A stretch of DNA of 57,194 bases from an uncultured Clostridia bacterium (lineage in GTDB: Bacteria > Bacillota > Clostridia > Christensenellales > CAG-138). The stretch covers positions 1-57,194 of the forward strand of contig CAMZFO010000003.1 of the NCBI GenBank assembly GCA_947306125.1, in the 5' to 3' direction. The position numbers were made by a program, and so were the translations under genes. This document shows positions 4,976 through 37,279 of this stretch, in pieces (the first letter of the stretch is position 1; each line of letters begins with the position of its first letter). The notes beneath the pieces are model-generated. The model was not told the DNA's origin. It was given only the letters and a program-made list of their open reading frames with translations, and did not search any database.

Positions 4976-6604
4976 ATGAAGAAATTCCTCGCTCTCCTCA
5001 TATCGGTAGCTATGGTGATCGGTTTTGCCGCCGTTCCCGTTGCTGCTGAGGGTGAGGTCACATTCACAGTGGCCACTGTGAATGATGTCAATCCCGGCGA
5101 TACCGTTGCGATCCCCGTAACGATCGGCGGAGCGGATTTCGAGGCTCACAGCATCGTAACTCATCTGTATTTCGATACCGCCAACCTCGAGCTCGTATCC
5201 ATCACCAATGGTGAGGTCATCGCGAATCGTCCCGATGACGCTATGCTCATCAAGGATTATCAGACCAATCCCGGCGACATAGCCATCGGCTTCATTTGCC
5301 CGACCGAGCCCGCGACCACCCACGGCGTGTTCTACACCGCCAATTTCCGCGTTAAGGAAAGCTGCACCACCGACCAGATCCTTGACTTCAACGTTGACGA
5401 GTTCTATAACATGCCCGTCGGCCAGACCACTCCGAATCCCTATCCCGTGATAGTGACGGACGGCGCGATCAATCTGGTGCATCAGGAGGTAACTCCCGCT
5501 CCCACCGCGGCTCCCACCGCTGCTCCCACTGCGGCTCCCACCGCCGCTCCCACCGCTGCTCCCACTGCTGCTCCTCAGCCCGACAAGGCTTACTTCGAGA
5601 TGGAGAGCATGGACAACGTTGTTCCCGGCAGCACCATCACCCTTGACTTCACGGTATCCGGCAATTACGCCGCTCATATCCTGAATGCCAGGATCCTGTA
5701 TGTCGATGACGATCTCGAGGTCGTCAACGTGCAGGCCGGTCCTGTCCTCAACTCCGTTGAAGACGCTATGGTCGTTCTCGACTATGCGACTCCCGGCGTC
5801 ATCAGCATCGGCGCTATCATGCCCACCGAGCCCATGACTGCGGAAGGCGCTGTCGTATCCATAACCTTCAAGGTATCCGCGGGCTTCAAGGTTCCCACCA
5901 TGCTCCCCGTTGAGATCGTTGAGTTCGGTTATCTGCCTGTTGGCGAGTCCTTCGCCGAGCCCGTTGATTACGAGGTAGAGGATGGTCTCCTCACCCCCGC
6001 TGAGGGCGTCACTCCCGAAGCTCATATCGTAATGGGCAGCCAGTATGAGGTACCCGGCGGCACCAGGATCACCCTGCCGCTCACCATCGACGGTAATTAC
6101 GAGATCCACACTATGAACCTCTTCCTCAACTATGACGCTGACGTGCTCACCGTTGTAGGCGTTGAGAAGGGCGAAGTTCTCAATTCCGTTGAGGATGCTG
6201 CTGTTATCATCGATTACACCACCGTTCCCGGTTCCATCCGTATCGGCGCTGTCATGCCCACCGACGGCATCACCGCTGAGGGTGTTATCGCTTACGTCAC
6301 CTTCGACGTAGCCGAAGATTTCGCTGAGCCCACCGTCATCGAGGTTCAGGTCAACGAGCTCGGCTATATGCCCGTTGGTCAGGCCAATGCCGAGGATATC
6401 AATTACACTGCCGATAACGGCATCGTAACTCCCGTAGGCATTCCCGGTCCGTCCGATGAACCCGGCCCCGGCCCGTCCGATGAACCCGGCCCCGGCCCCG
6501 GACCTAATCCGCCTATCACCGGTGCTGCCAGCCTCGTTGGTCTTGGTATCGCCGCTATCGTAGCCGGTGCGGGCATCGTCATCTTCCGCAAGAAAGAGGA
6601 CTGA
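4976..6604 (+). CDS. Cell-surface scaffoldin-like protein with three cohesin-like modules and a C-terminal sorting signal
   Basis: RBS aggaaggag precedes ATG 4976 and a signal peptide MKKFLALLISVAMVIGFAAVPVAAEG follows. Three modules of about 140 aa have a cohesin pattern (G.T..IPV...., LEL/LEVV, G.I.IG, AEGV...TF.V). PT and GPSDEP linkers separate them. The tail is PPITG, a hydrophobic stretch, then RKKED. Confidence 0.8.
   Translation: MKKFLALLISVAMVIGFAAVPVAAEGEVTFTVATVNDVNPGDTVAIPVTIGGADFEAHSIVTHLYFDTANLELVSITNGEVIANRPDDAMLIKDYQTNPGDIAIGFICPTEPATTHGVFYTANFRVKESCTTDQILDFNVDEFYNMPVGQTTPNPYPVIVTDGAINLVHQEVTPAPTAAPTAAPTAAPTAAPTAAPTAAPQPDKAYFEMESMDNVVPGSTITLDFTVSGNYAAHILNARILYVDDDLEVVNVQAGPVLNSVEDAMVVLDYATPGVISIGAIMPTEPMTAEGAVVSITFKVSAGFKVPTMLPVEIVEFGYLPVGESFAEPVDYEVEDGLLTPAEGVTPEAHIVMGSQYEVPGGTRITLPLTIDGNYEIHTMNLFLNYDADVLTVVGVEKGEVLNSVEDAAVIIDYTTVPGSIRIGAVMPTDGITAEGVIAYVTFDVAEDFAEPTVIEVQVNELGYMPVGQANAEDINYTADNGIVTPVGIPGPSDEPGPGPSDEPGPGPGPNPPITGAASLVGLGIAAIVAGAGIVIFRKKED
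5492..5578 (+). repeat. 12-nt tandem repeat encoding a (APTA)n Pro/Thr linker between cohesin modules 1 and 2
   Basis: gctcccaccgcg-type units occur six times, translating to TPAPTAAPTAAPTAAPTAAPTAAPTAAPQ. Confidence 0.85.
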
Positions 6605-6654: not shown

Positions 6655-6658
6655 CCAT

Positions 6659-6694
6659 GCAAAAAAAGAGCGCGGCGTACGATCGCCTGCGCTC
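6659..6694 (-). terminator. Rho-independent terminator after aroQ (minus strand)
   Basis: AGAGCGC...GCGCTCT stem, with the A-run on the plus strand giving a U-tract on the minus strand. Confidence 0.6.
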
Positions 6695-6710
6695 TTATCT
6701 TATCTCCAGA

Positions 6711-7145
6711 TCATTCTTCGAGCCTGTCCTTCATCATCCGCAGACCCGTTTCATAGCTTGCTTCGCCCAGGCCCATAACCCGGAAGGCGCAGACGTCCTC
6801 AATAACGTCCACGGCGCGGAAGGGCTCGCGGCTCAAGATATCGCTCATATGCACCTCGCCCACGGGTATCGGGCAGCACGCAATGGCGTCCCGCAGGGCG
6901 TAGGAGTAGTGCGTCAGCGCGCCGGCGTTGAGCATGACGCCGTCAAAGCTCAGCGGCGCCGCCTGCAATTCGTCGATAAGCACGCCCTCGTGATTAGTCT
7001 GCAGATGCGTGATGCTCACACCGAGCCCCTCCGCGACCTCGGAAAGCCGCGCTATGATCTCGTCGAGGCTCCGCGTGCCGTATATCTCGGGCTCCCGCCT
7101 GCCGGTCATGTTGAGATTCGGGCCGTTCAAAACAAGCAGTTTCAT
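6711..7145 (-). CDS. aroQ: Type II 3-dehydroquinate dehydratase
   Basis: MKLLVLNGPNLNMTGRREPEIYG...HLQTNHEG. The start is moved to the second ATG because GAAGGAG lies 7 nt upstream of it. Confidence 0.9.
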   Translation of the reverse strand: MKLLVLNGPNLNMTGRREPEIYGTRSLDEIIARLSEVAEGLGVSITHLQTNHEGVLIDELQAAPLSFDGVMLNAGALTHYSYALRDAIACCPIPVGEVHMSDILSREPFRAVDVIEDVCAFRVMGLGEASYETGLRMMKDRLEE

Positions 7146-7233
7146 GCTCATGCTCCTTCGCCTTTGCTGTATTCCATAAAATTATACCACAGCGGAACGA
7201 TATGTGGTATAATTATTTTTGGAGGTGAGATAA

Positions 7234-8001
7234 ATGCTGCATTACGGCGTCATAGGCTGCCCCATAGCGCACAGCCTTTCTCCCGAGATCTACGGGCAGC
7301 TTTTCGAAAAATACGGCGTCAGCGCGGATTTTTCCCGCATTCTGATAGAGCCGGGGGATATTGGTATGCTGCGTGAGATCACGGGCGGGCTATCGGGCTT
7401 TGCGGTGACTATGCCGTATAAGCGGGCCGTCATGCAGTATCTCGACGGCATAACGGATACCGCCGCGGAATGCGGCGCGGTGAATATAGTCGAGCGGAGG
7501 GACGGCTTGCTCATAGGCCACAATACGGACGGCATGGGGCTCGTCGACGCGCTCGATGAAGCCGGAGCCATGCCCGAGCCCTGCCGCGTATTCATACTGG
7601 GCAGGGGAGGAGCGGCGGTCTCGGCGGCCTGCGCAATAAGGCGCAGGGGAGGGGAGCCCGTGCTCCTCGTCAGGACCCCGGGAGCTCCCGCGGACTTTGA
7701 CCGGCTGCTTTTCGATAAGGAAGACCTCGCGGGCAAAAGCTGCGGAGTGTTCATCAACGCCACGCCGCTCGGCATGGGAGGCGCGGAAGGGTTCGCCTCG
7801 TTCGATTTTCTTGATGAGCTCTCGCCTCGCGCCGTACTCGACATGGTCTATCTTCGCGGCGGGGAAACGCCCCTTATCAGCGAGGCGAGATCGCGCGGTA
7901 TGATCGCCGTGGACGGCAGCCGCATGCTGTTGATGCAGGCGCTCCGCGCGTTCCGGATCTGGACCGGGATCGAGGCGCATCCGGAGGATGTGACGATATA
8001 A
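7234..8001 (+). CDS. aroE: Shikimate dehydrogenase
   Basis: YGVIGCPIAHSLSPEIY N-terminus, MPYK motif, a Rossmann-like stretch ILGRGGAA, and RBS GGAGG. Confidence 0.85.
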   Translation: MLHYGVIGCPIAHSLSPEIYGQLFEKYGVSADFSRILIEPGDIGMLREITGGLSGFAVTMPYKRAVMQYLDGITDTAAECGAVNIVERRDGLLIGHNTDGMGLVDALDEAGAMPEPCRVFILGRGGAAVSAACAIRRRGGEPVLLVRTPGAPADFDRLLFDKEDLAGKSCGVFINATPLGMGGAEGFASFDFLDELSPRAVLDMVYLRGGETPLISEARSRGMIAVDGSRMLLMQALRAFRIWTGIEAHPEDVTI

Positions 8002-26876: not shown

Positions 26877-27848
26877 ATGAAAGACCGCAAAGCTTTTGAG
26901 CCTATTATCGCGGGGCTTAACGAGTATGATGCTTTCAGCATACTCACCCACGTTTCTCCCGACGGAGACACGCTGGGTTCCGCCCTTGCGCTTTACGCTC
27001 TTATAAGGGATATGGGCAAGACGGCCGAGGTGATATGCGAGGAACCGGTCCCCCATATCTACGGCTATCTTCCCAATGCCGAAAAGGTCGTGCTGCCGCA
27101 GGATGCGGTGGGCTATGAATGCGTGATCACCGCGGACTGCGCCGATATGTCCCGCTTCAAGAAGGCGGAGCATATCTTCGAGGGCGCGAAGTACACAATG
27201 GTCATAGACCATCATTTTACCAATAAGGGCTACGGCATGGCCAATCTTATCATGGCGGACGCCTCCGCCGCGTGCGAGGCGGTCTATTACCTGTATAAGC
27301 ATATGGACAAGCCGATCACTCCGGAGGCTGCGGTGTGCCTTTACACCGGCATCGTCACCGATACCGGCAATCTCACCTATTCGAACACCACCCCCGCCTG
27401 CATCAGGATGGTGGCGGAAATGTATGAGAACGGCCTGAATATCACCGAGATCAACCGGAATATCTACAGGACGGTCCCCTTCTCCAAGACGAGGCTCCAG
27501 GGGCACGTGCTCGCCAATATGAAGCTCGAAAGGGAGGGCACTATAGGCATCGCGACCCTCACCGTGGCGGAGATGGATTCCTTCGGCGCGACCAACGAGG
27601 ACTGCGAGGGCATAGTCGACAGCGTGCGCGACGTCGAGTGCGTTAAGGTCGCCATATTCATAAGGGAGGGCCGCGACGGCACCTTCAAGGTCAGCCTCCG
27701 CTCGAAGGACTGCGCCGACGTGGGCAGGATCTCCAAAAAGTACGGCGGCGGCGGTCATGCGGCCGCGGCGGGATATACCTCCGCCGAGCCTCTTTCCACC
27801 ACCATCGCGAACGCTCTTCGGGATGCTTCCGAAGTATTGAGCGAATGA
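26877..27848 (+). CDS. nrnA: DHH/DHHA1 phosphoesterase (NrnA-like oligoribonuclease/pAp phosphatase)
   Basis: HVSPDGDTLGS, VIDHHFTN, TDTGN and GGGHAAAAG motifs. Confidence 0.8.
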   Translation: MKDRKAFEPIIAGLNEYDAFSILTHVSPDGDTLGSALALYALIRDMGKTAEVICEEPVPHIYGYLPNAEKVVLPQDAVGYECVITADCADMSRFKKAEHIFEGAKYTMVIDHHFTNKGYGMANLIMADASAACEAVYYLYKHMDKPITPEAAVCLYTGIVTDTGNLTYSNTTPACIRMVAEMYENGLNITEINRNIYRTVPFSKTRLQGHVLANMKLEREGTIGIATLTVAEMDSFGATNEDCEGIVDSVRDVECVKVAIFIREGRDGTFKVSLRSKDCADVGRISKKYGGGGHAAAAGYTSAEPLSTTIANALRDASEVLSE

Positions 27849-29143
27849 TAAACGCAGAAGGTGTAATTTGCATTTTGAAGCCTCCGGGGATGAGCTCCTC
27901 GGACGCTGTGACAGACGTCAGACGGGTCTTTGAAGAAAAGCGAGTCGGGCATACAGGCACTTTGGACCCCGCGGCTGCGGGAGTCCTGCCCATCTGCATA
28001 GGCCGCGCGACCCGTCTTTTTGATTATCTCGTGGATAAGCGGAAGGAGTACATTGCCGAGCTCGTTTTCGGCTGCGCTACCGATACCGAGGACGCGACGG
28101 GTACCGTCACGGCCGTTTCGGACAGGACGGTGGAGCCCGAGGAGCTTTCGGCGGCGCTCCCGCGCTTCATAGGCGATATCGAGCAGGTCCCGCCGCTGTA
28201 TTCCGCTTTGAACGTGAACGGAGTAAAGCTTTATAAGCTCGCCCGCTCCGGCGAGCTCAACGAGGCGCTTGAGGAAAAGCGCCGCACCATCACGGTATAC
28301 GGGCTCGAGCTCATAGAAAGGACGGGGGAGAACAGGTTCCTCATAAGGATCGAATGCTCGAAGGGGACCTATATAAGGACGCTCTGCAAGGATATCGGGG
28401 AGGCGATAGGCTGCCCGGCGCACATGGCGTTCCTGCTCCGCACGAGGTCGGGCGCGTTCACGCTCGAAAACTCGTATTCCATAGCCGAGCTTGCCGAAAT
28501 GAAGGAAAGGGGCGAGCTTTTATCCGCCCTCATACCGATGGACAGGGCGATAGAGCATATCCCGAAGCTCGAGCTTAACGGCCTTTCCCGGAAAAACGCA
28601 CAGCTTCTGATACACGGCGCGGGGATAAAATGCGCGGACGGCAGGCAGGGGAGGCCCCTGAGGGTGTATCTCGACGGCGAATTCATGGGGCTGGGCGAGA
28701 TAAAAGAAGGCGAGCTGAGGATCACAGTATGGCTCGGCGGCGACGCGCACCAGATAAAGGGCATGAAGATATCCGGCAGGATAGCGCACCATAACCGCAT
28801 CGGCACGGAGCTCGGCTTCCCGACTGCCAATCTTGAAGGGTACGACAAAAAGCAGCTCCCCTCCGAGGGCGTTTACGCCACCGCCGCGGAGCTCGAAGGC
28901 AAAAGATACGCCGCCGTCACCTCGATTGGCAGGAACCCCACCGTGGGCGGCAGGGAGCTCACTGTCGAGACCCACATACTGGATTACGAGGGCGACTGCT
29001 ACGGCAAGCCCATGACGGTCGTGTTCATAAAGCGGCTGAGGGGGATGATAAAGTTCGGCTCGACCGAGGAGCTCAAAAGCCGCATCGCGCGCGACTGCGA
29101 GGAGGCACGCCGCATAGCCGCCGATTCAAAATATACCGAATAA
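27845..29143 (+). CDS. truB: tRNA pseudouridine(55) synthase TruB fused in frame to a riboflavin kinase (flavokinase) domain
   Basis: Residues 1-300 are TruB (GHTGTLDP catalytic Asp, KGTYIRTL, PUA-like end). Residues about 305-432 are ISGRIAHHNRIGTELGFPTANL...GVYA...GRNPTV...ETHILDYEGDCYG...FIKRLRGMIKFGSTEEL, which is the RibF C-terminal kinase domain. No FMN adenylyltransferase domain is present. Confidence 0.85.
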   Translation: MINAEGVICILKPPGMSSSDAVTDVRRVFEEKRVGHTGTLDPAAAGVLPICIGRATRLFDYLVDKRKEYIAELVFGCATDTEDATGTVTAVSDRTVEPEELSAALPRFIGDIEQVPPLYSALNVNGVKLYKLARSGELNEALEEKRRTITVYGLELIERTGENRFLIRIECSKGTYIRTLCKDIGEAIGCPAHMAFLLRTRSGAFTLENSYSIAELAEMKERGELLSALIPMDRAIEHIPKLELNGLSRKNAQLLIHGAGIKCADGRQGRPLRVYLDGEFMGLGEIKEGELRITVWLGGDAHQIKGMKISGRIAHHNRIGTELGFPTANLEGYDKKQLPSEGVYATAAELEGKRYAAVTSIGRNPTVGGRELTVETHILDYEGDCYGKPMTVVFIKRLRGMIKFGSTEELKSRIARDCEEARRIAADSKYTE

Positions 29144-31830: not shown

Positions 31831-32018
31831 GTGCCCGCGCCTCCCGATTGAGCGGCGTGCGGGCAAAAGCACTTGCCGCATATGCTGTTGATGGACGTTT
31901 CTTAAATACACGCACAATTATGTAAAATTCATTATTGACAAAATAATGAAGGGGGTATAATTAAATTAGGGGGGAAATAATACAGCGGCAAAACAATATG
32001 TGTTCAGGAGGTAATTCT

Positions 32019-32444
32019 ATGAAAAAGAAGACGCTGTTTATCATTTTGGCCGTGCTGGCTGTCATTTTGGCTGCGGTTTTCGCGGTGAAGGCTGTTGAAA
32101 GAGCCAAACAGAGGCGGATCGCCGAAGCGCGCTTCAACGTCGCCGGCGATATCGTCCGCGTCGAATATAAGGATCTCATGAGCGGCGCCGTCGCCGTCAC
32201 CGATAGGCAGGAGGATATAAAGGTGCTGCTTGAATGCATCGAGCTTGCAAGGCTCAATTATCGAACTGCAGATCATCAACTGGCAGCGATGGCGGACAGC
32301 CCGAGCATCACCTATAAGTATGCCGACGGAAGCAGAAAACAATATGATTATATAGTTAAGCCCAACGAGAAGTATCCGCAGCCGTTCAAGGCTTTCTGCG
32401 AGATACCCTATATCGCCGGGCAGCTTGCTGCCAAGGACGATTGA
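32019..32444 (+). CDS. Hypothetical membrane-anchored protein
   Basis: AGGAGG RBS precedes ATG 32019. N-terminal TM MKKKTLFIILAVLAVILAAVFAV. No motif I recognise. Confidence 0.55.
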   Translation: MKKKTLFIILAVLAVILAAVFAVKAVERAKQRRIAEARFNVAGDIVRVEYKDLMSGAVAVTDRQEDIKVLLECIELARLNYRTADHQLAAMADSPSITYKYADGSRKQYDYIVKPNEKYPQPFKAFCEIPYIAGQLAAKDD

Positions 32445-32539
32445 GCCTTTCATTGATCCCTGCGCCCCTCCTTTTCAGGCGAGGCGCTTTTTTGCGCCCC
32501 AAACAAAAAAATTTTTTTCTCCGGGGGCTCTTATATGGG

Positions 32540-32568
32540 GTGACAAAGGAGCTCTTCTGTGATAGAAT
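32540..32568 (+). promoter_or_regulatory. Sigma-A-type promoter for the dockerin-protein pair
   Basis: GTGACA, 17 nt spacer, TGa-TAGAAT. Confidence 0.4.
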
Positions 32569-32594: not shown

Positions 32595-34583
32595 GTGAGA
32601 AAACCAAAAGTGAAACGTATCTTATCCATTGTAATCTCAGCATTGATGCTCTTTGCTCTCGTCCCCGCCGCGGCGCTCGCCGAAGACGCCGCGTATGCCG
32701 TGCGGGAAGCCGCCGCCATGAGGCGCTGGGACGACGTGTGGAGCGCGCTGGACCCCGTTGAAAAGGAGATGCTGGCCCTTGGCGCCACTCCCGCCGAGGT
32801 CACGAACGCCGTTTATAAGGCGGCGCTCAACTGCCCCCTCATCGACGAGGGCAGCATAACCGATCTCTGCTCCAACGAGTTTACCTTCACCACCGCCGGA
32901 ATGCTCGGCGGCTACAACTACCGCGTGAGGAACTATGATAAGGCTCCCGCGAGGATGACCGCTCCCTCCTCCGCCGCGAAGTCGGTCGAGAGGATCAACG
33001 CCGTCAAAAACGGTCCCTCGAGCATAAACGTGCTCCTCGTCGGCCCCTATTACGGCTCCGACAGCAGCTTCACCGATCAGTACAGGCGCGAGGCGCAGTC
33101 CCTCGCCGAGGCGACCGGCGGTCAGCTCACCGTGCTCCAGGGTTCGCAGGCGACCGGCCCGAATATCGCCGCCAATTACCCCAATAAGGGCATAGTCATT
33201 TATGACTCCCACGGCAACTGCATCTCCTCGAAGCAGACCTCCTATCTGGATCTGACCTCGAGCACGGGCCTCACCTCGACCGACTATTCCAACGGATGGG
33301 CGTATAACGGCGGTTCCTTCTACGGCATCGACGGGCGCTATATCCAGAACCACGTGACGGAGCCCCTCTCCAACTGCTTCGTTTGGATGGCCATTTGCGA
33401 GGGCATGAAGCTCGGCGGCAGAGGTACTACGGGCACCGCGCTGCTTGCCGCGGGCGCAGCGGCTGTTTACGGCTATTCCCAGTCAGTCACTTTCGCGGGC
33501 GATTACGAGTATGAAGCGACCTTCTGGGATCTCATGAAGGAGGGCGCCATAGTTTCCGAGGCGCTTGAAGAGATGAAGGAGGTCCACGGCATTCCCGATC
33601 CCTATGGCGACGCTTATCCCATTCTGATGAGCCCCGTCGATCCCTTCCCCTCCAACCCCGACGGTGCGCAGGAGGTCTCCTGCGATTGGAATATGTATTC
33701 AAGCGAGCCCGTCGCGCTCGAGAGCTATTCCTTAAGCGATACCTCGATCGACGTTTACGAGAGCTTTACAAGGGTCGTCACGTTCGACCGAGTGCCCTTC
33801 AATGCGAATGAGTATGAGCTCGCCTGGAGCTCCGCCGATGAGAGCGTCGCGGCAGTTGCCGGCAATAACCGCAAGGTCAGGATCACCGGCGTCGGTGAAG
33901 GCGCGACCGAGATCGTCTGCACCGTGCTCGTCGACGGCAGCGTAATAGGCACTGAGAGCGTCTCCGTTAACGTACTGCGTCTCCCGACTCTCAACGAGGC
34001 GGCGAACGCTCCCGGCGGCAGCCTTGAATTCACCTCCGCTACGGCCGCTTACCCCTGGACGGTCGGCGTCGTGGACGGCATGCCCGCCGCCATGTCCGGT
34101 AACGCGGGCGTCAATAATTCCACCTCCACGCTGCAGCTCGCGGTCCATATGGAGGCCGGCGATCAGCTTACGTTCAGGATGAAGGCGAGCAGCGAGGACG
34201 ATTACGATTTCCTCCGCTTCTACGTCAATAACTCCATATACGGCTCCCAGATGAGCGGCGACAGCGAGTGGAGGGAGGTCACCTACACCGCGCAGACGAG
34301 CGGCAGCTACACCTTCCAGTGGAGATTCGTCAAGGATCAGTACGTCGGCAGCTATGACGACTGCGGCTATCTCTGCGGCGTGAGGCTCATATCGAGCGTC
34401 GTTCCCGGCGACGTCAATTACGACAGCGCCGCGGACAGCGCCGACGCGCTCCTCGTGCTGCGCTACTCGATGGGCCTTGAGGAGCTGACCGCCGATCAGC
34501 TCGCCCGCGCCGACGTCAACGGCGACGGCGCCGTCGATTCCGCGGACGCCCTCCGCATACTCCGCGATTACCTTCTCGGCTGA
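32595..34583 (+). CDS. Secreted dockerin-containing protein with a putative clan-CD cysteine peptidase domain, a Big_2-like Ig domain and an uncharacterised beta-sandwich
   Basis: Signal peptide. His-Gly (VIYDSHGN) and Cys (VWMAICEGMKL) dyad in caspase/gingipain/legumain-like strand context. Ig-like VAAVAGNNRKVRITGVGEGATEIVCTV. C-terminal dockerin DVNYDSAADSADAL...DVNGDGAVDSADAL at 34398-34580. The start is GTG 32595 or GTG 32610. Confidence 0.7.
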   Translation: MRKPKVKRILSIVISALMLFALVPAAALAEDAAYAVREAAAMRRWDDVWSALDPVEKEMLALGATPAEVTNAVYKAALNCPLIDEGSITDLCSNEFTFTTAGMLGGYNYRVRNYDKAPARMTAPSSAAKSVERINAVKNGPSSINVLLVGPYYGSDSSFTDQYRREAQSLAEATGGQLTVLQGSQATGPNIAANYPNKGIVIYDSHGNCISSKQTSYLDLTSSTGLTSTDYSNGWAYNGGSFYGIDGRYIQNHVTEPLSNCFVWMAICEGMKLGGRGTTGTALLAAGAAAVYGYSQSVTFAGDYEYEATFWDLMKEGAIVSEALEEMKEVHGIPDPYGDAYPILMSPVDPFPSNPDGAQEVSCDWNMYSSEPVALESYSLSDTSIDVYESFTRVVTFDRVPFNANEYELAWSSADESVAAVAGNNRKVRITGVGEGATEIVCTVLVDGSVIGTESVSVNVLRLPTLNEAANAPGGSLEFTSATAAYPWTVGVVDGMPAAMSGNAGVNNSTSTLQLAVHMEAGDQLTFRMKASSEDDYDFLRFYVNNSIYGSQMSGDSEWREVTYTAQTSGSYTFQWRFVKDQYVGSYDDCGYLCGVRLISSVVPGDVNYDSAADSADALLVLRYSMGLEELTADQLARADVNGDGAVDSADALRILRDYLLG

Positions 34584-34624
34584 TCGCGCTGATAAAGCTA
34601 ATCTTAATTAAGGAGATAAAAACT

Positions 34625-36628
34625 ATGTTTACCAAAAGGATCGCCGCAGTCATACTCTCTCTGCTGATGGTTCTGGCTCTTGTCCCCGCGGCAGCGCTTG
34701 CCGGGGACGTCAGCTCCGCCGTACATGAGAAGAGCATGCTCGCAAAGCTCGATTCCGCGTGGAGCGTGCTTGAGGACGTCGAGTCCGAAGCCATCGCCTC
34801 CGGTGCGGAGATGAGCGAAGTCACAAAGGCCGTCTATAAGGCGGCTCTGCAGCTCAAGCTGGTCGATGAAAAGAGCATCAACAGCTTGACCTCGAAGAGC
34901 TTCTTCTTCAAGGTCAACGGCATGGAGTGCTGCTATGATTACGTCGCCCGCAACATTCCCCATGTCTCCGCCGTCAGCGGCGAGACCGTCAGCGCCATCT
35001 CCGCCGCTGTGGGCGCTTCCCAGCCCAAGAACGGCCCCACGAGCATGGACGTTTTGCTCGTCGGCCCCTATTACGGCGAGGACTCCAACTTCACGAATCA
35101 GTATAGGAACGAAGCCAATTCCATCGCCAATTCCGTTGGCGGTGAGATGACCGAGCTTGCTCATTACGCTGCGACCGGTCCCGCCATCGCGGAGGCCGTC
35201 GTCGAAGCCGGCGTAGTCATCTACGACTCCCACGGCACCGCAAGCGGCACTTCTTCCTATCTCTGCCTCACCACCAACAGCGGTATCACCTCCGAAGACT
35301 ATCAGAACGGCTGGGCGGTCAACGCCGGCGGCGCCGCTTATATCGACGGCAGGTATATCCAGAACCACATCACGCAGGAGCTTCCCAACAACATTTTCTG
35401 GATGGCTATCTGCGAGGGCATGAAGCTTTCCGGCCGCGGCACCACCGGCTACGCTCTGCTTGATGCCGGCGCAGGCTGCGTTTACGGTTATTCTCAGTCA
35501 GTCACCTTCTCCGGCGATTACAGGTACGAGGCGCACTTCTGGAATAACATGAAGAACAACGACATGACCGTCGCCGAGGCTTTCAACGCCATGACCGCCG
35601 CGCTGGGCAACTGGGATCCCGCTTATTCCAGCTCCTCCGGCGCCGCGTGGCCCATCGTTATGAGCCCGGACGATCCCTTCCCCACGAATCCCGACAGCCA
35701 CCAGACCGTGTACTGCGACTGGGCCCTGAGGGGCGGCAGCCTTGAGCCGGTCGAGCTGACCGAATGGAGCCTCAGCGAAGAGGCCGTCGAGCTTTACGAG
35801 ACCACCACGGTCAACGTCAAGTTCGAGCGCATCCCCGACAATGCGAACCACTACGAGCTCGTATGGCACAGCCAGGATGAGAGCATCGCAGCCGTTTCCG
35901 GCAATAACCGCAGGGTCGCCATCACCGGCGTCGGCGAGGGCGCGACCAATATCTATTGCGAGATACTGGTGGACGGCGAGTGCATCGGCACCGCCTTCTG
36001 CGCCGTCAACGTCATCCACTTCCCGACTCTGAACGAGGCGGCGAACGAGGAGAACGGCACTCTCGAATTCACCTCCACGACTCCCAACTATCCCTGGGCG
36101 TGCGCTATCATCGACGGCGAGGCAGTTGCCAAGAGCGGCAACTCGGGGCAGGACAGCACAGTTTCGACCATGCAGCTCGTGCTCGATATGGAAGCAGGCG
36201 ATAAGCTCGTATTTGATTGGAGGGTCAGCTCCGAGTCGAATTACGATATGCTCGGCTTCTACGTGAACGGCACGCAGAACGGCTCCCGCATCAGCGGCGA
36301 GACCGATTGGGCGACCATCACCTATACCGCCGCCACCTCCGGAACCTTCACCTTCCAGTGGCGCTATGAGAAGGATTATTCCGTGAGCAGGAACGACGAC
36401 TGCGGCTATGTCAACAACGTCAGGTTCGTGCCCGAAGCCTATCTGCCCGGCGACGTCAACAACAACGGCGCCGTTGAAAGCGACGACGCGCTTATCGTGC
36501 TCCGCTACAGCCTCGGCCTCGCGAATCTCACCTCCGCTCAGCTTGCCCGTGCGGACGTTAACGGCGACGGCTTAGTCAACAGCACCGACGCTATAATGAT
36601 CCTGCGCAGCGCTCTCGGCGCGGCATGA
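34625..36628 (+). CDS. Paralogous dockerin-containing putative clan-CD peptidase
   Basis: Same architecture as the upstream gene (VIYDSHGT, FWMAICEGMKL, Ig-like domain, beta-sandwich, dockerin DVNNNGAVESDDAL...DVNGDGLVNSTDAI at 36440-36625). RBS AAGGAG. Confidence 0.7.
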   Translation: MFTKRIAAVILSLLMVLALVPAAALAGDVSSAVHEKSMLAKLDSAWSVLEDVESEAIASGAEMSEVTKAVYKAALQLKLVDEKSINSLTSKSFFFKVNGMECCYDYVARNIPHVSAVSGETVSAISAAVGASQPKNGPTSMDVLLVGPYYGEDSNFTNQYRNEANSIANSVGGEMTELAHYAATGPAIAEAVVEAGVVIYDSHGTASGTSSYLCLTTNSGITSEDYQNGWAVNAGGAAYIDGRYIQNHITQELPNNIFWMAICEGMKLSGRGTTGYALLDAGAGCVYGYSQSVTFSGDYRYEAHFWNNMKNNDMTVAEAFNAMTAALGNWDPAYSSSSGAAWPIVMSPDDPFPTNPDSHQTVYCDWALRGGSLEPVELTEWSLSEEAVELYETTTVNVKFERIPDNANHYELVWHSQDESIAAVSGNNRRVAITGVGEGATNIYCEILVDGECIGTAFCAVNVIHFPTLNEAANEENGTLEFTSTTPNYPWACAIIDGEAVAKSGNSGQDSTVSTMQLVLDMEAGDKLVFDWRVSSESNYDMLGFYVNGTQNGSRISGETDWATITYTAATSGTFTFQWRYEKDYSVSRNDDCGYVNNVRFVPEAYLPGDVNNNGAVESDDALIVLRYSLGLANLTSAQLARADVNGDGLVNSTDAIMILRSALGAA

Positions 36629-36642
36629 TCTGCCGATGACAT

Positions 36643-36670
36643 AAGGGACGGCCCCGCGCCGTCCCTTTTC
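36643..36670 (+). terminator. Rho-independent terminator after the dockerin-protein pair
   Basis: GGGACGGC-CCCGC-GCCGTCCC stem-loop followed by TTTT. Confidence 0.7.
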
Positions 36671-36694: not shown

Positions 36695-36723
36695 TTGCAA
36701 AACCCGCCCAAAGGGTGTATAAT
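36695..36723 (+). promoter_or_regulatory. Sigma-A-type promoter of the tRNA-Val locus
   Basis: TTGCAA, 17 nt spacer, TATAAT, about 19 nt upstream of module A. Confidence 0.55.
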
Positions 36724-36741
36724 AATCAAGCACGGAAACCT

Positions 36742-36856
36742 TGGTCGCATGGCTCAGTTGGTAGAGCATATCGTTCACATCTATGGAGCATTGCGACTCG
36801 CGCATCCTGCGGATGAAGCAGCGAGGCGCAATGGGTTCGAGTCAAAAGACTCGAAC
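36742..36856 (+). pseudogene. tRNA-derived module A: tRNA-Val 5' half, a 51-nt hairpin insert, then a T-loop palindrome; no 3' acceptor strand
   Basis: 36742-36780 is identical to 36875-36913 of the intact tRNA. A G-to-T change breaks the anticodon stem. The insert is CATTGCG-A-CTCGC...GCGAG-G-CGCAATG. It ends with GGTTCGAGTC-AAAA-GACTCGAACC. Confidence 0.5.
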
Positions 36857-36874
36857 CGTAGGAAGAACTCAATA

Positions 36875-36950
36875 TGGTCGCATGGCTCAGTTGGTAGAGC
36901 ATATCGTTCACATCGATGGGGTCACAGGTTCGAGTCCTGTTGCGACCACC
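36875..36950 (+). tRNA. tRNA-Val (anticodon CAC), CCA encoded
   Basis: Manual cloverleaf: acceptor GGTCGCA/TGCGACC, D arm GCTC-AGTTGGTA-GAGC, anticodon arm TATCG-TTCACAT-CGATG, T arm ACAGG-TTCGAGT-CCTGT, discriminator A73, CCA. 76 nt. Confidence 0.85.
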
Positions 36951-36953
36951 AAA

Positions 36954-36977
36954 AGACGCTTGAAAAAGCGTCTTTTT
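36954..36977 (+). terminator. Rho-independent terminator after tRNA-Val
   Basis: GACGCTT-GAAA-AAGCGTC stem-loop followed by TTTTTT. Confidence 0.75.
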
Positions 36978-36980
36978 TCG

Positions 36981-37085
36981 TGTCGCGGAAAGAGCATATC
37001 GTTCACATCGATGGAGCATTGCGACTCGCGCATCCTGCGGATGAAGCAGCGAGGCGCAATGGGGGAGAGTCCTGTTGCGACCACC
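36981..37085 (+). pseudogene. tRNA-derived module C: degenerate 5' end without D arm, anticodon arm, the same 51-nt insert, and an authentic tRNA 3' end with CCA
   Basis: The 72-nt block 36991-37062 equals 36763-36834 with one mismatch. It ends ...GAGAGTCCTGTTGCGACCACCA. The 5' T-arm strand is missing. Confidence 0.5.
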
Positions 37086-37088
37086 AAA

Positions 37089-37109
37089 AGACGCCGAAAG
37101 GCGTCTTTT
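37089..37109 (+). terminator. Second rho-independent terminator, a near copy of the first
   Basis: GACGCC-GAAA-GGCGTC stem-loop followed by TTTTT. Confidence 0.7.
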
Positions 37110-37116
37110 TATTGCG

Positions 37117-37132
37117 TCAACAGGACTCGAAC
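37117..37132 (-). repeat. Inverted copy of the tRNA T-arm/acceptor 3' segment
   Basis: CAACAGGACTCGAACC is the reverse complement of GGTTCGAGTCCTGTTG. It forms a long inverted repeat with 37066-37080 around the terminator. Confidence 0.7.
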
Positions 37133-37149
37133 CAAAAGAAAACTCGATA

Positions 37150-37216
37150 TGACAGGCTGTTTTGCCCGTATAGCATATCGAACCATCGATGGGGAGAGTA
37201 TTGCCCCGGATCCCAC
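37150..37216 (+). pseudogene. tRNA-derived module D: decayed tRNA-Val copy
   Basis: Aligns to the intact tRNA through ...TAGCATATCG-AACCAT-CGATGGGG.... The preceding spacer AACTCGATAT matches AACTCAATAT before the intact tRNA. No cloverleaf can be drawn. Confidence 0.35.
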
Positions 37217-37220
37217 CTCG

Positions 37221-37249
37221 CTTTACAAATACAGCCCTGTGCGTTATAA
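37221..37249 (+). promoter_or_regulatory. Sigma-A-type promoter for the GNAT gene
   Basis: TTTACA, 17 nt spacer, TATAAT. Confidence 0.5.
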
Positions 37250-37279
37250 TTTGCCTGCATAACATAAGGAGGCGATAGA

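Follow-up and report, generated by a model that had tools for sequence, protein, structure and literature searches.

In a 57,194-nucleotide stretch of DNA from an uncultured Clostridia bacterium (positions 1 to 57,194 of contig CAMZFO010000003.1, assembly GCA_947306125.1; hereafter the window), two tandem genes, ORF1 (32595-34583) and ORF2 (34625-36628), encode proteins with a predicted export signal, a predicted caspase-hemoglobinase-fold domain and a C-terminal dockerin. We consider it fairly probable, mainly on the strength of structural modelling, that both are active cysteine peptidases of the clan CD type that are displayed through the dockerin. Likewise, the models indicate that the core domain is likely a new clan CD family, one unrecognised by sequence, carried on a known type of display system. 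ORF1 (662 amino acids) and ORF2 (667 amino acids) lie in the same orientation on the + strand, as do all the features within them given below, and their products are 55% identical over the full length; the assignments are based on the open reading frames, Pfam searches and the alignment of the two paralogues, and for ORF1 also on an AlphaFold model. A first-pass annotation of this DNA had described two tandem paralogues at these coordinates that share a signal peptide, a prodomain-like N-terminal region, a His-Gly and an Ala-x-Cys-x-Gly motif in the His/Cys order of clan CD, a Big_2-like immunoglobulin (Ig) domain, an unrecognised beta-sandwich-like module and a canonical two-repeat dockerin, and it had pointed to a cell-anchored protein with three cohesins in the same window. 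All of these elements were recovered here. The order along ORF1 is signal peptide, N-terminal region of about 85 residues, linker, alpha/beta domain of about 225 residues, Big_2 Ig domain, jelly-roll beta-sandwich and type I dockerin, and ORF2 is built alike.

The placement of the core domain in clan CD comes from structure. A full-length AlphaFold model of ORF1, built with an alignment of 54 sequences, reached a mean predicted local distance difference test (pLDDT) score of 87.9, and in this model the alpha/beta domain spans residues 146-346. Because a Foldseek search with the full-length model was swamped by Ig and carbohydrate-binding module (CBM) matches, the domain was remodelled alone (residues 125-365; pLDDT 89.6, predicted template modelling score 0.89). 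When the domain model was searched against the PDB, the top 23 matches were all clan CD peptidases (CHAT, separase and gingipain), with E values down to 5e-6 and template modelling (TM) scores on the query of 0.39-0.56, about 0.5 for the best. The best CHAT matches were the CHAT domain of DdvA (8rw5 and 8rot, E 5e-6) and SAVED-CHAT (8tl0, TM 0.56 on the query), and further CHAT matches came from Craspase TPR-CHAT/Csx29 (7y84, 8d9h, 7xsq and others). Separase was represented by 5fby, 5fc2, 5u1s and 9hn5 and gingipain by RgpB (4ief, TM 0.51-0.52), while the caspases Dronc and caspase-11 stood lower in the list. The full-length model had separately picked out 8tl0 and 8rw5 amid hundreds of Ig and CBM matches. 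The name gingipain/legumain-like, which the first-pass annotation had given to the pair, was thus borne out as far as the clan is concerned, whereas the nearest folds were CHAT and separase and not specifically gingipain or legumain.

In clan CD peptidases a His-Gly follows the third strand of the core and the catalytic Cys follows the fourth. The same arrangement was found in the ORF1 domain (residues 138-362, 33006-33680), which is modelled as an alpha/beta/alpha sandwich akin to those of caspases, gingipains, separase and CHAT. Its first strand (146-150) is followed by a helix, a second strand (178-182), another helix and a third strand (200-204), directly after which stand His206 and Gly207; an insert of about 55 residues then leads to the fourth strand (262-266), directly followed by Cys268, and a helix, a fifth strand (290-294), two helices and a sixth strand (342-346) complete the domain, so that His-Gly and then Cys end consecutive core strands. 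His206 is encoded by the CAC codon at 33210-33212, within DSHG, and Cys268 by the codon at 33396-33398, within WMAICEG. In ORF2 the domain covers residues 138-366 (35036-35722), and alignment to ORF1 together with the family alignment places the corresponding residues at His203 (35231-35233) and Cys263 (35411-35413). The surrounding motifs read VIYDSHGN and VWMAICEGMKL in ORF1, and VIYDSHGT and FWMAICEGMKL in ORF2.

Conservation across the family agreed with this assignment. Asp204, Ser205, His206, Gly207 and Cys268 were invariant in 54/54 close members and in 32/32 divergent members, the latter chosen from among the most distant members listed, with identities down to about 40%. Judged from the sequences, the motifs and the flanks of the His and Cys are not a product of chance, since they are invariant across hundreds of proteins, and the invariance of His, Gly and Cys with their flanks down to about 40% identity points to an active-site pattern and not to a decayed site. 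The context of the predicted nucleophile is AICEG in the subgroup of ORF1 and ORF2 and AICLG in the wider family. Between the two window proteins the clearest difference lies in the loop behind the predicted catalytic His, which is HGNCISSKQTSYLDL in ORF1 and HGTASGTSSYLCL in ORF2. A further invariant loop, LLVGPYYGxDSxFTxQY, follows the first strand (ORF1 residues about 146-169, 33030-33100) and is a candidate S1 pocket or substrate-binding wall. A likeness between PYYGxDSxFTxQY and the DPYYGNDSDFETVY loop of low-molecular-weight phosphotyrosine phosphatase was also considered and rejected; it covers 23 residues with an E value of 0.16, which is not significant, the fold differs, and we attribute it to chance or convergence.

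The N-terminal part of both proteins has the layout of a zymogen. Signal peptides with typical Sec features could be read from the sequence, ending ALA|ED in ORF1 (residues 1-29, ...VPAAALA|ED, 32595-32681, from its n-, h- and c-region features) and ALA|GD in ORF2. In ORF1 this is followed by a prodomain-like region (residues 30-115, 32682-32939), defined by the secondary structure of the AlphaFold model and by conservation: helices occupy residues 36-78 and a beta-hairpin residues 95-108, the helical and hairpin part runs from about 36 to 113, and over the 54 close and 32 divergent members Phe96, Gly102 and Tyr107 are invariant or nearly so and Arg112 is nearly invariant. On the model, this N-terminal region of roughly 85 residues is probably a prodomain. 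Between it and the core lies a linker of low confidence (residues 116-137, 32940-33005; pLDDT < 50 at 116-136) that ends beside a conserved Lys/Arg, Lys138 in ORF1. A Lys or Arg is found at alignment column 138 or 139 in up to 46/54 close members and at column 139 in 24/32 divergent members, about 8 residues ahead of the first core strand. The linker next to Lys138 is therefore a candidate autoprocessing site, where cleavage may possibly occur, and a Lys/Arg ahead of the mature domain would fit an Arg/Lys-directed self-cleavage as in gingipains and clostripain. These features also bear on the idea that the pair has no catalytic role and acts as surface adhesins or structural cargo, with a caspase-like domain that serves for binding and a His and Cys that are structural. 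Pseudo-proteases do exist within clan CD, and the Ig and CBM-like modules of the pair would suit a binding role; the invariance of His, Gly and Cys with their flanks down to about 40% identity and a prodomain and linker typical of zymogens argue the other way, and we give this idea very little credence.

The fold assignment had no counterpart in sequence-profile searches. The first-pass annotation had suggested HMMER searches of Pfam as a check on the domain, and here the outcome was negative. Neither Pfam nor NCBIfam, searched with both full proteins, matched the alpha/beta domain; PDB searches with a single sequence (phmmer) and with three family profiles (hmmsearch) returned no clan CD chain and nothing relevant; and in ten divergent members searched against Pfam the core domain was without a significant match. 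When Pfam was searched at E <= 10 with 19 divergent domain slices, CHAT alone appeared, in 1/19 and below threshold (E 0.046). The peptidase families C25, C13, C11, C14 and C50 gave no match at E <= 1 with the full proteins and none at E <= 10 with the 19 slices, and neither ORF1 nor ORF2 matches the CHAT profile PF12770. Given that the profile tests for CHAT, C25, C13, C11, C14 and C50 all failed, we treat the domain as a new family within the clan that is a member of none of these.

Behind the core domain, ORF1 carries a Big_2-type Ig domain (residues about 374-461, 33714-33977) that is all-beta in the model, where it covers residues 377-461. The Pfam matches to Big_2 were weak in the pair (E 4.7e-4 for ORF1 and 2e-4 for ORF2, both slightly below the gathering score); Big_2 was matched in 52/54 family members, with a best E value of 2e-11. 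The next module is a CBM-like jelly-roll beta-sandwich (residues about 466-600, 33990-34394), modelled with pLDDT > 90 and resolved as a sandwich over residues 479-599. In the Foldseek search with the full-length model it matched CBM51, CBM61, CBM4, CBM22, Big_2-CBM56 and the VesC C-terminal domain. No profile names it, and the weak profile traces were scattered, consisting of NCBIfam choice_anch_J in ORF2, CBM60 in 5/54 members and an InhA-like MAM match. This module raises the question whether the Cys/His pair performs a non-peptidase reaction, such as amide or ester cleavage, on peptidoglycan, a glycoprotein or a plant polymer to which the sandwich would direct it. The resemblance to CBM51, CBM61, CBM4, CBM22 and CBM56 and the CBM60 traces would favour such a role, as would the fact that dockerins of rumen Firmicutes often carry carbohydrate-active cargo and that no profile connects the core domain with peptidases. 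However, the significant structural neighbours are all peptidases, with no esterase or amidase fold in the top 23; a His-Gly and a Cys after the third and fourth strands are a specific clan CD peptidase signature; and no glycoside hydrolase or esterase domain was found in any member examined. We therefore rate a non-peptidase activity as quite improbable, and retain the peptidase reading for the core domain.

Both proteins end in a type I dockerin, at residues 604-661 in ORF1 (34404-34577, repeats starting at 34410 and 34512) and at residues 608-659 in ORF2 (36446-36601, repeats starting at 36452 and 36554). Pfam Dockerin_1 (PF00404) matched with E values of 8.3e-11 and 1.1e-12 and scores of 42.4 and 48.4 bits, respectively, against a cut-off of 22.9, and PDB dockerins were matched for ORF1 as well. 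The repeats are DVNYDSAADSAD / DVNGDGAVDSAD and DVNNNGAVESDD / DVNGDGLVNSTD, with DVNxDxxxDxxD present twice per protein. No further dockerin was found in the window beyond those of ORF1 and ORF2. The same organism encodes a cell-anchored cohesin protein, and this is the candidate docking partner (4976-6604, + strand): it has a signal peptide, three type-I-like cohesins (Pfam Cohesin E 4.5e-30 over three stretches, with type I cohesins nearest in the PDB), PT linkers and a predicted C-terminal sorting signal. Its C-terminus consists of NPPITG, a hydrophobic stretch and RKKED, and the PPITG tail presumably fits the (S/P)PXTG sortase motif of Clostridioides difficile SrtB and not LPXTG. On sequence grounds, a link between the dockerins of ORF1 and ORF2 and these cohesins is plausible. 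Directly downstream of the cohesin gene lies an ORF of 239 amino acids (6657-7376) that has no Pfam match and is not a recognisable sortase.

The general arrangement of a peptidase tethered by a dockerin is already known. Dockerins had been introduced in the first-pass annotation as best known on glycoside hydrolases, which needs amending, in that fusions of a dockerin to a peptidase are in fact common among Firmicutes of the rumen and gut (PMC4611034, PMC7480376). Ruminococcus bromii has four dockerin proteins with peptidase modules; one such dockerin bound 4/4 cohesins tested, and that of a protein labelled as a cysteine protease showed weak binding, to a single cohesin (PMC4611034). The dockerin-peptidases of the R. 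bromii amylosome, among them CBL16032.1 and CBL14836.1, resemble ORF1 and ORF2 in joining a peptidase to a type I dockerin on surface cohesin scaffolds, a likeness of layout. Among the catalytic modules joined to dockerins in an enriched rumen consortium, peptidases ranked first in prevalence (PMC7480376). Our literature search found no paper that names both a dockerin and clan CD, and papers on Christensenell* and dockerin, judged by title and abstract, held nothing concerning the family.

We examined how widely the family occurs. A word-indexed search returned 649 homologues, of which the best 120 were 57-99% identical; those with a name were entered as 'Ig-like domain-containing', 'dockerin type I repeat-containing', 'InlB B-repeat-containing' or 'hypothetical', from 'MAG: Clostridia bacterium'. 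A profile search run exhaustively over 1.84 billion representatives found at least 455 clusters (50% identity) at E <= 1e-3, 229 of them at E <= 1e-30. The members listed carry the domain close to their N-terminus, in most cases from about residue 120-200 to 350-445, behind a leader and a prodomain-like region. Their C-terminal parts vary and reach up to 2,500 amino acids, and in the members inspected include dockerin, three SLH domains, CUB, InlB B-repeats and Cleaved_Adhesin. One enzymatic head with many anchoring or binding tails is the usual pattern of extracellular enzymes of Firmicutes. By a strict regular expression, only about half of the family ORFs in the GTDB loci carry a dockerin, and the rest include proteins with SLH, CUB and long repeat-rich tails. 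In the GTDB species genomes the family was present in 332 stretches, from which 78 loci were kept, and 78/78 of these belong to uncultured gut or rumen Clostridia. Their sources are RGIG and RUG metagenome-assembled genomes (MAGs) from sheep, goat, buffalo and cattle and a Hadza human-gut MAG, and they also include 'Christensenellaceae bacterium Phil7', 'Christensenella sp. UBA1214' and 'Clostridium sp. CAG:138'. At least four family copies each were found in RGIG5933, RGIG8038, RGIG1555 and UMGS453, and tandem pairs in 13/78 kept loci. Window DNA itself was detected in bovine and goat gut metagenomes. Bovine-gut metatranscriptomes yielded a few short contigs, with 0-4 differences each, that between them fall on both ORFs, which is weak evidence that the pair is expressed.

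The tandem arrangement is shared with a relative, locus L001, whose identity is 77% across the core region and 69% across the full length and which has a tandem pair at the equivalent place; in both the window and the relative, the pair lies downstream of infB-rbfA-nrnA-truB-rpsO-pnp and upstream of zinc-ribbon, thioredoxin and CcdA genes. ORF1 is 69% identical to the first gene of the relative and ORF2 63% identical to the second, whereas the cross-comparisons give 55-56%. This orthologue-like pattern, together with the synteny, indicates that the duplication is older than the split of the two species and that both copies were kept, and the retention of both suggests that the two enzymes differ in function.

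Comparison with known systems sharpened the picture of what such an enzyme might do. CHAT proteases (PF12770) were the closest in structure (E 5e-6 to 1e-3, with TM scores on the query of 0.41-0.56) and have their strand order in common with ORF1 and ORF2, the third strand leading to His-Gly and the fourth to Cys. However, they are cytoplasmic, signal-activated processing enzymes of defence and signalling, whereas ORF1 and ORF2 are predicted to be Sec-exported and differ further in the prodomain-like leader, in the fusion to Ig, CBM-like and dockerin modules and in having no significant sequence match to CHAT. The gingipains RgpB and Kgp of Porphyromonas gingivalis (family C25, clan CD) are parallel in design, with a signal, a prodomain, a caspase fold, an Ig domain, a beta-sandwich or adhesin part and a surface module, and one relative within the family bears Cleaved_Adhesin (PF07675), a module of the gingipain haemagglutinin regions. 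They differ in that Peptidase_C25 of Pfam found no match even at E 10, that the catalytic domain has about 225 residues here and about 350 in two subdomains in gingipains, that the prodomain has about 85 against about 200 residues, and that attachment would run through dockerin and cohesin in a Gram-positive-type cell, as proposed here, instead of through a type IX secretion C-terminal domain. Legumain (C13) and the clostripain-like C11 enzymes (PmC11) share the clan and the His...Cys order with the pair, and the legumain motifs DHG and EACESG resemble DSHG and AICEG, the latter being limited to this subgroup; gut-bacterial C11 enzymes are secreted zymogens activated by self-cleavage. Neither Peptidase_C13 nor Peptidase_C11 of Pfam matched ORF1 or ORF2, and both families were absent from the top Foldseek matches.

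These comparisons also allow for a different use of the same fold and dyad, in which ORF1 and ORF2 would be transpeptidases or maturases that act on other surface proteins, such as dockerin or sorted proteins, by trimming, ligating or attaching them. Clan CD includes transamidases, such as GPI8 of family C13, the legumain-type ligases and the C25-like PorU sortase of type IX secretion, and the AICEG context resembles the EACESG of legumain. In addition, the best structural matches, CHAT and separase, are highly specific processing proteases and not bulk digesters, and the genes sit amid the housekeeping genes pnp, rpsO and truB and not in a nutrient-uptake locus. On the other hand, several copies per genome with highly variable binding or anchor modules are a better fit for a degradative family that captures its substrates than for a single dedicated maturase, the pair has no conserved partner or substrate gene beside it, and the wider family has AICLG and not the legumain-like AICEG. 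We regard a maturase role as unlikely, and continue with a degradative or processing peptidase as the preferred reading.

Together, these data are consistent with the following scheme. ORF1 and ORF2 would be a bicistronic pair of secreted, zymogen-type cysteine peptidases with the predicted dyads His206/Cys268 and His203/Cys263. After Sec export, the prodomain of about 85 residues would be freed when the flexible linker is cut, perhaps behind the conserved Lys/Arg; the Ig domain would serve as a spacer, and the CBM-like beta-sandwich would present or target the enzyme. The type I dockerin would plug into a cohesin of a scaffold anchored in the cell wall, such as the PPITG protein at 4976-6604, and so place a protease on the cell surface that degrades or processes extracellular protein, most likely for digestion in the ruminant gut. 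The data show the architecture, the class of fold, the placement and invariance of His and Cys, the dockerins and cohesins as genuine, the size of the family and an old, conserved duplication; catalysis, activation of the zymogen, the substrate and the cohesin partner are what we infer.

Several observations weigh against this scheme. The Foldseek TM scores are moderate (about 0.5, with a root-mean-square deviation of about 5 A), and other Rossmann-like folds can look similar to an alpha/beta sandwich; the predicted dyad is assigned in the model from strand order and invariance; and no sequence profile ties the core domain to any peptidase family. The metatranscriptome contigs are few, short and shallow, and DNA carry-over could contribute to them. 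As to docking, the cohesin gene lies 26 kb upstream of the pair in unrelated surroundings (genes for an ApbE-family protein and a ParA-like ATPase), and when 80 related loci were searched with a hidden Markov model of the three window cohesins, no cohesin ORF turned up within about 6 kb of them. Given this last result, the idea of a cohesin-protease operon was dropped. Cohesin and dockerin genes are often unlinked in bacteria that produce cellulosomes; the missing linkage is therefore no argument against binding, yet the support that genomic context could have lent is gone.

The layout of the pair suggests joint expression. ORF1 and ORF2 look like a single transcription unit, since the gap between the stop of ORF1 and ORF2 is 41 nucleotides, ORF2 has a strong ribosome-binding site (AAGGAG, 8 nucleotides ahead of its ATG), a promoter-like site lies upstream and a hairpin lies downstream. 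The promoter-like site, 5' of ORF1 (32540-32568, + strand), reads GTGACA, 17 nucleotides, TAGAAT, with a TG, and was found in a consensus scan as a match to the consensus alone. The terminator-like hairpin 3' of ORF2 (36645-36669, + strand), GGGACGG-N7-CCGTCCC followed by TTTT, was read from the sequence, the consensus scan having skipped it because its T-run is just four T long. For the start of ORF1 there are two candidates, in-frame GTG codons 15 nucleotides apart at 32595 and 32610, neither with a clear Shine-Dalgarno sequence. GTG 32610 is favoured as the start annotated for a database protein (P0001) that is 99% identical to ORF1, because its length of 657 amino acids fits the second start.

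The immediate surroundings hold a few further features. Between pnp and the pair lies an ORF of 148 amino acids (31998-32444, +) with one N-terminal hydrophobic helix and no Pfam match, and behind it a GC hairpin with a T-run that resembles a terminator (about 32461-32495); where this ORF sits, no gene is called in the relative L001. Directly 3' of the pair is a tRNA-Val(CAC) gene (36876-36951), within a segment (36695-37265) with long overlapping ORFs on both strands. Farther upstream, TruB is fused in frame to a flavokinase in an ORF of 432 amino acids (27845-29143, +; Pfam TruB_N, TruB_C_2 and Flavokinase), and the fusion is also present in the relative.

For the organisms that carry the family, a broader conjecture follows, which we advance tentatively and think rather doubtful at present. 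The clan CD family of at least 455 clusters might be the main catalytic cargo of a cohesin-dockerin system in uncultured Clostridia of the ruminant and human gut (MAGs labelled CAG:138 or Christensenellaceae), forming a surface 'proteolysome' in which, on a cellulosome-like scaffold, paralogous caspase-fold proteases with differing specificities and binding modules replace glycoside hydrolases; it would then constitute a new MEROPS/Pfam family with a short hairpin prodomain freed at a conserved Lys/Arg. How much of the dietary nitrogen a ruminant loses as ammonia is set by proteolysis in the rumen, and few of the enzymes responsible in uncultured Clostridia are known. The family described here is widespread in ruminant guts, often multi-copy, and its members are at present described only as 'Ig-like domain-containing' or 'dockerin' proteins. 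With a family name, hundreds of metagenomic proteins at the least could be better annotated, clan CD would gain a branch and surface proteolysis a concrete, readily testable candidate. It is also a further sign that cohesin-dockerin systems serve for display in general, beyond cellulose, a point already established in the literature. The surprise for specialists is limited, and the use of the finding would lie in annotation and in the study of rumen proteolysis.

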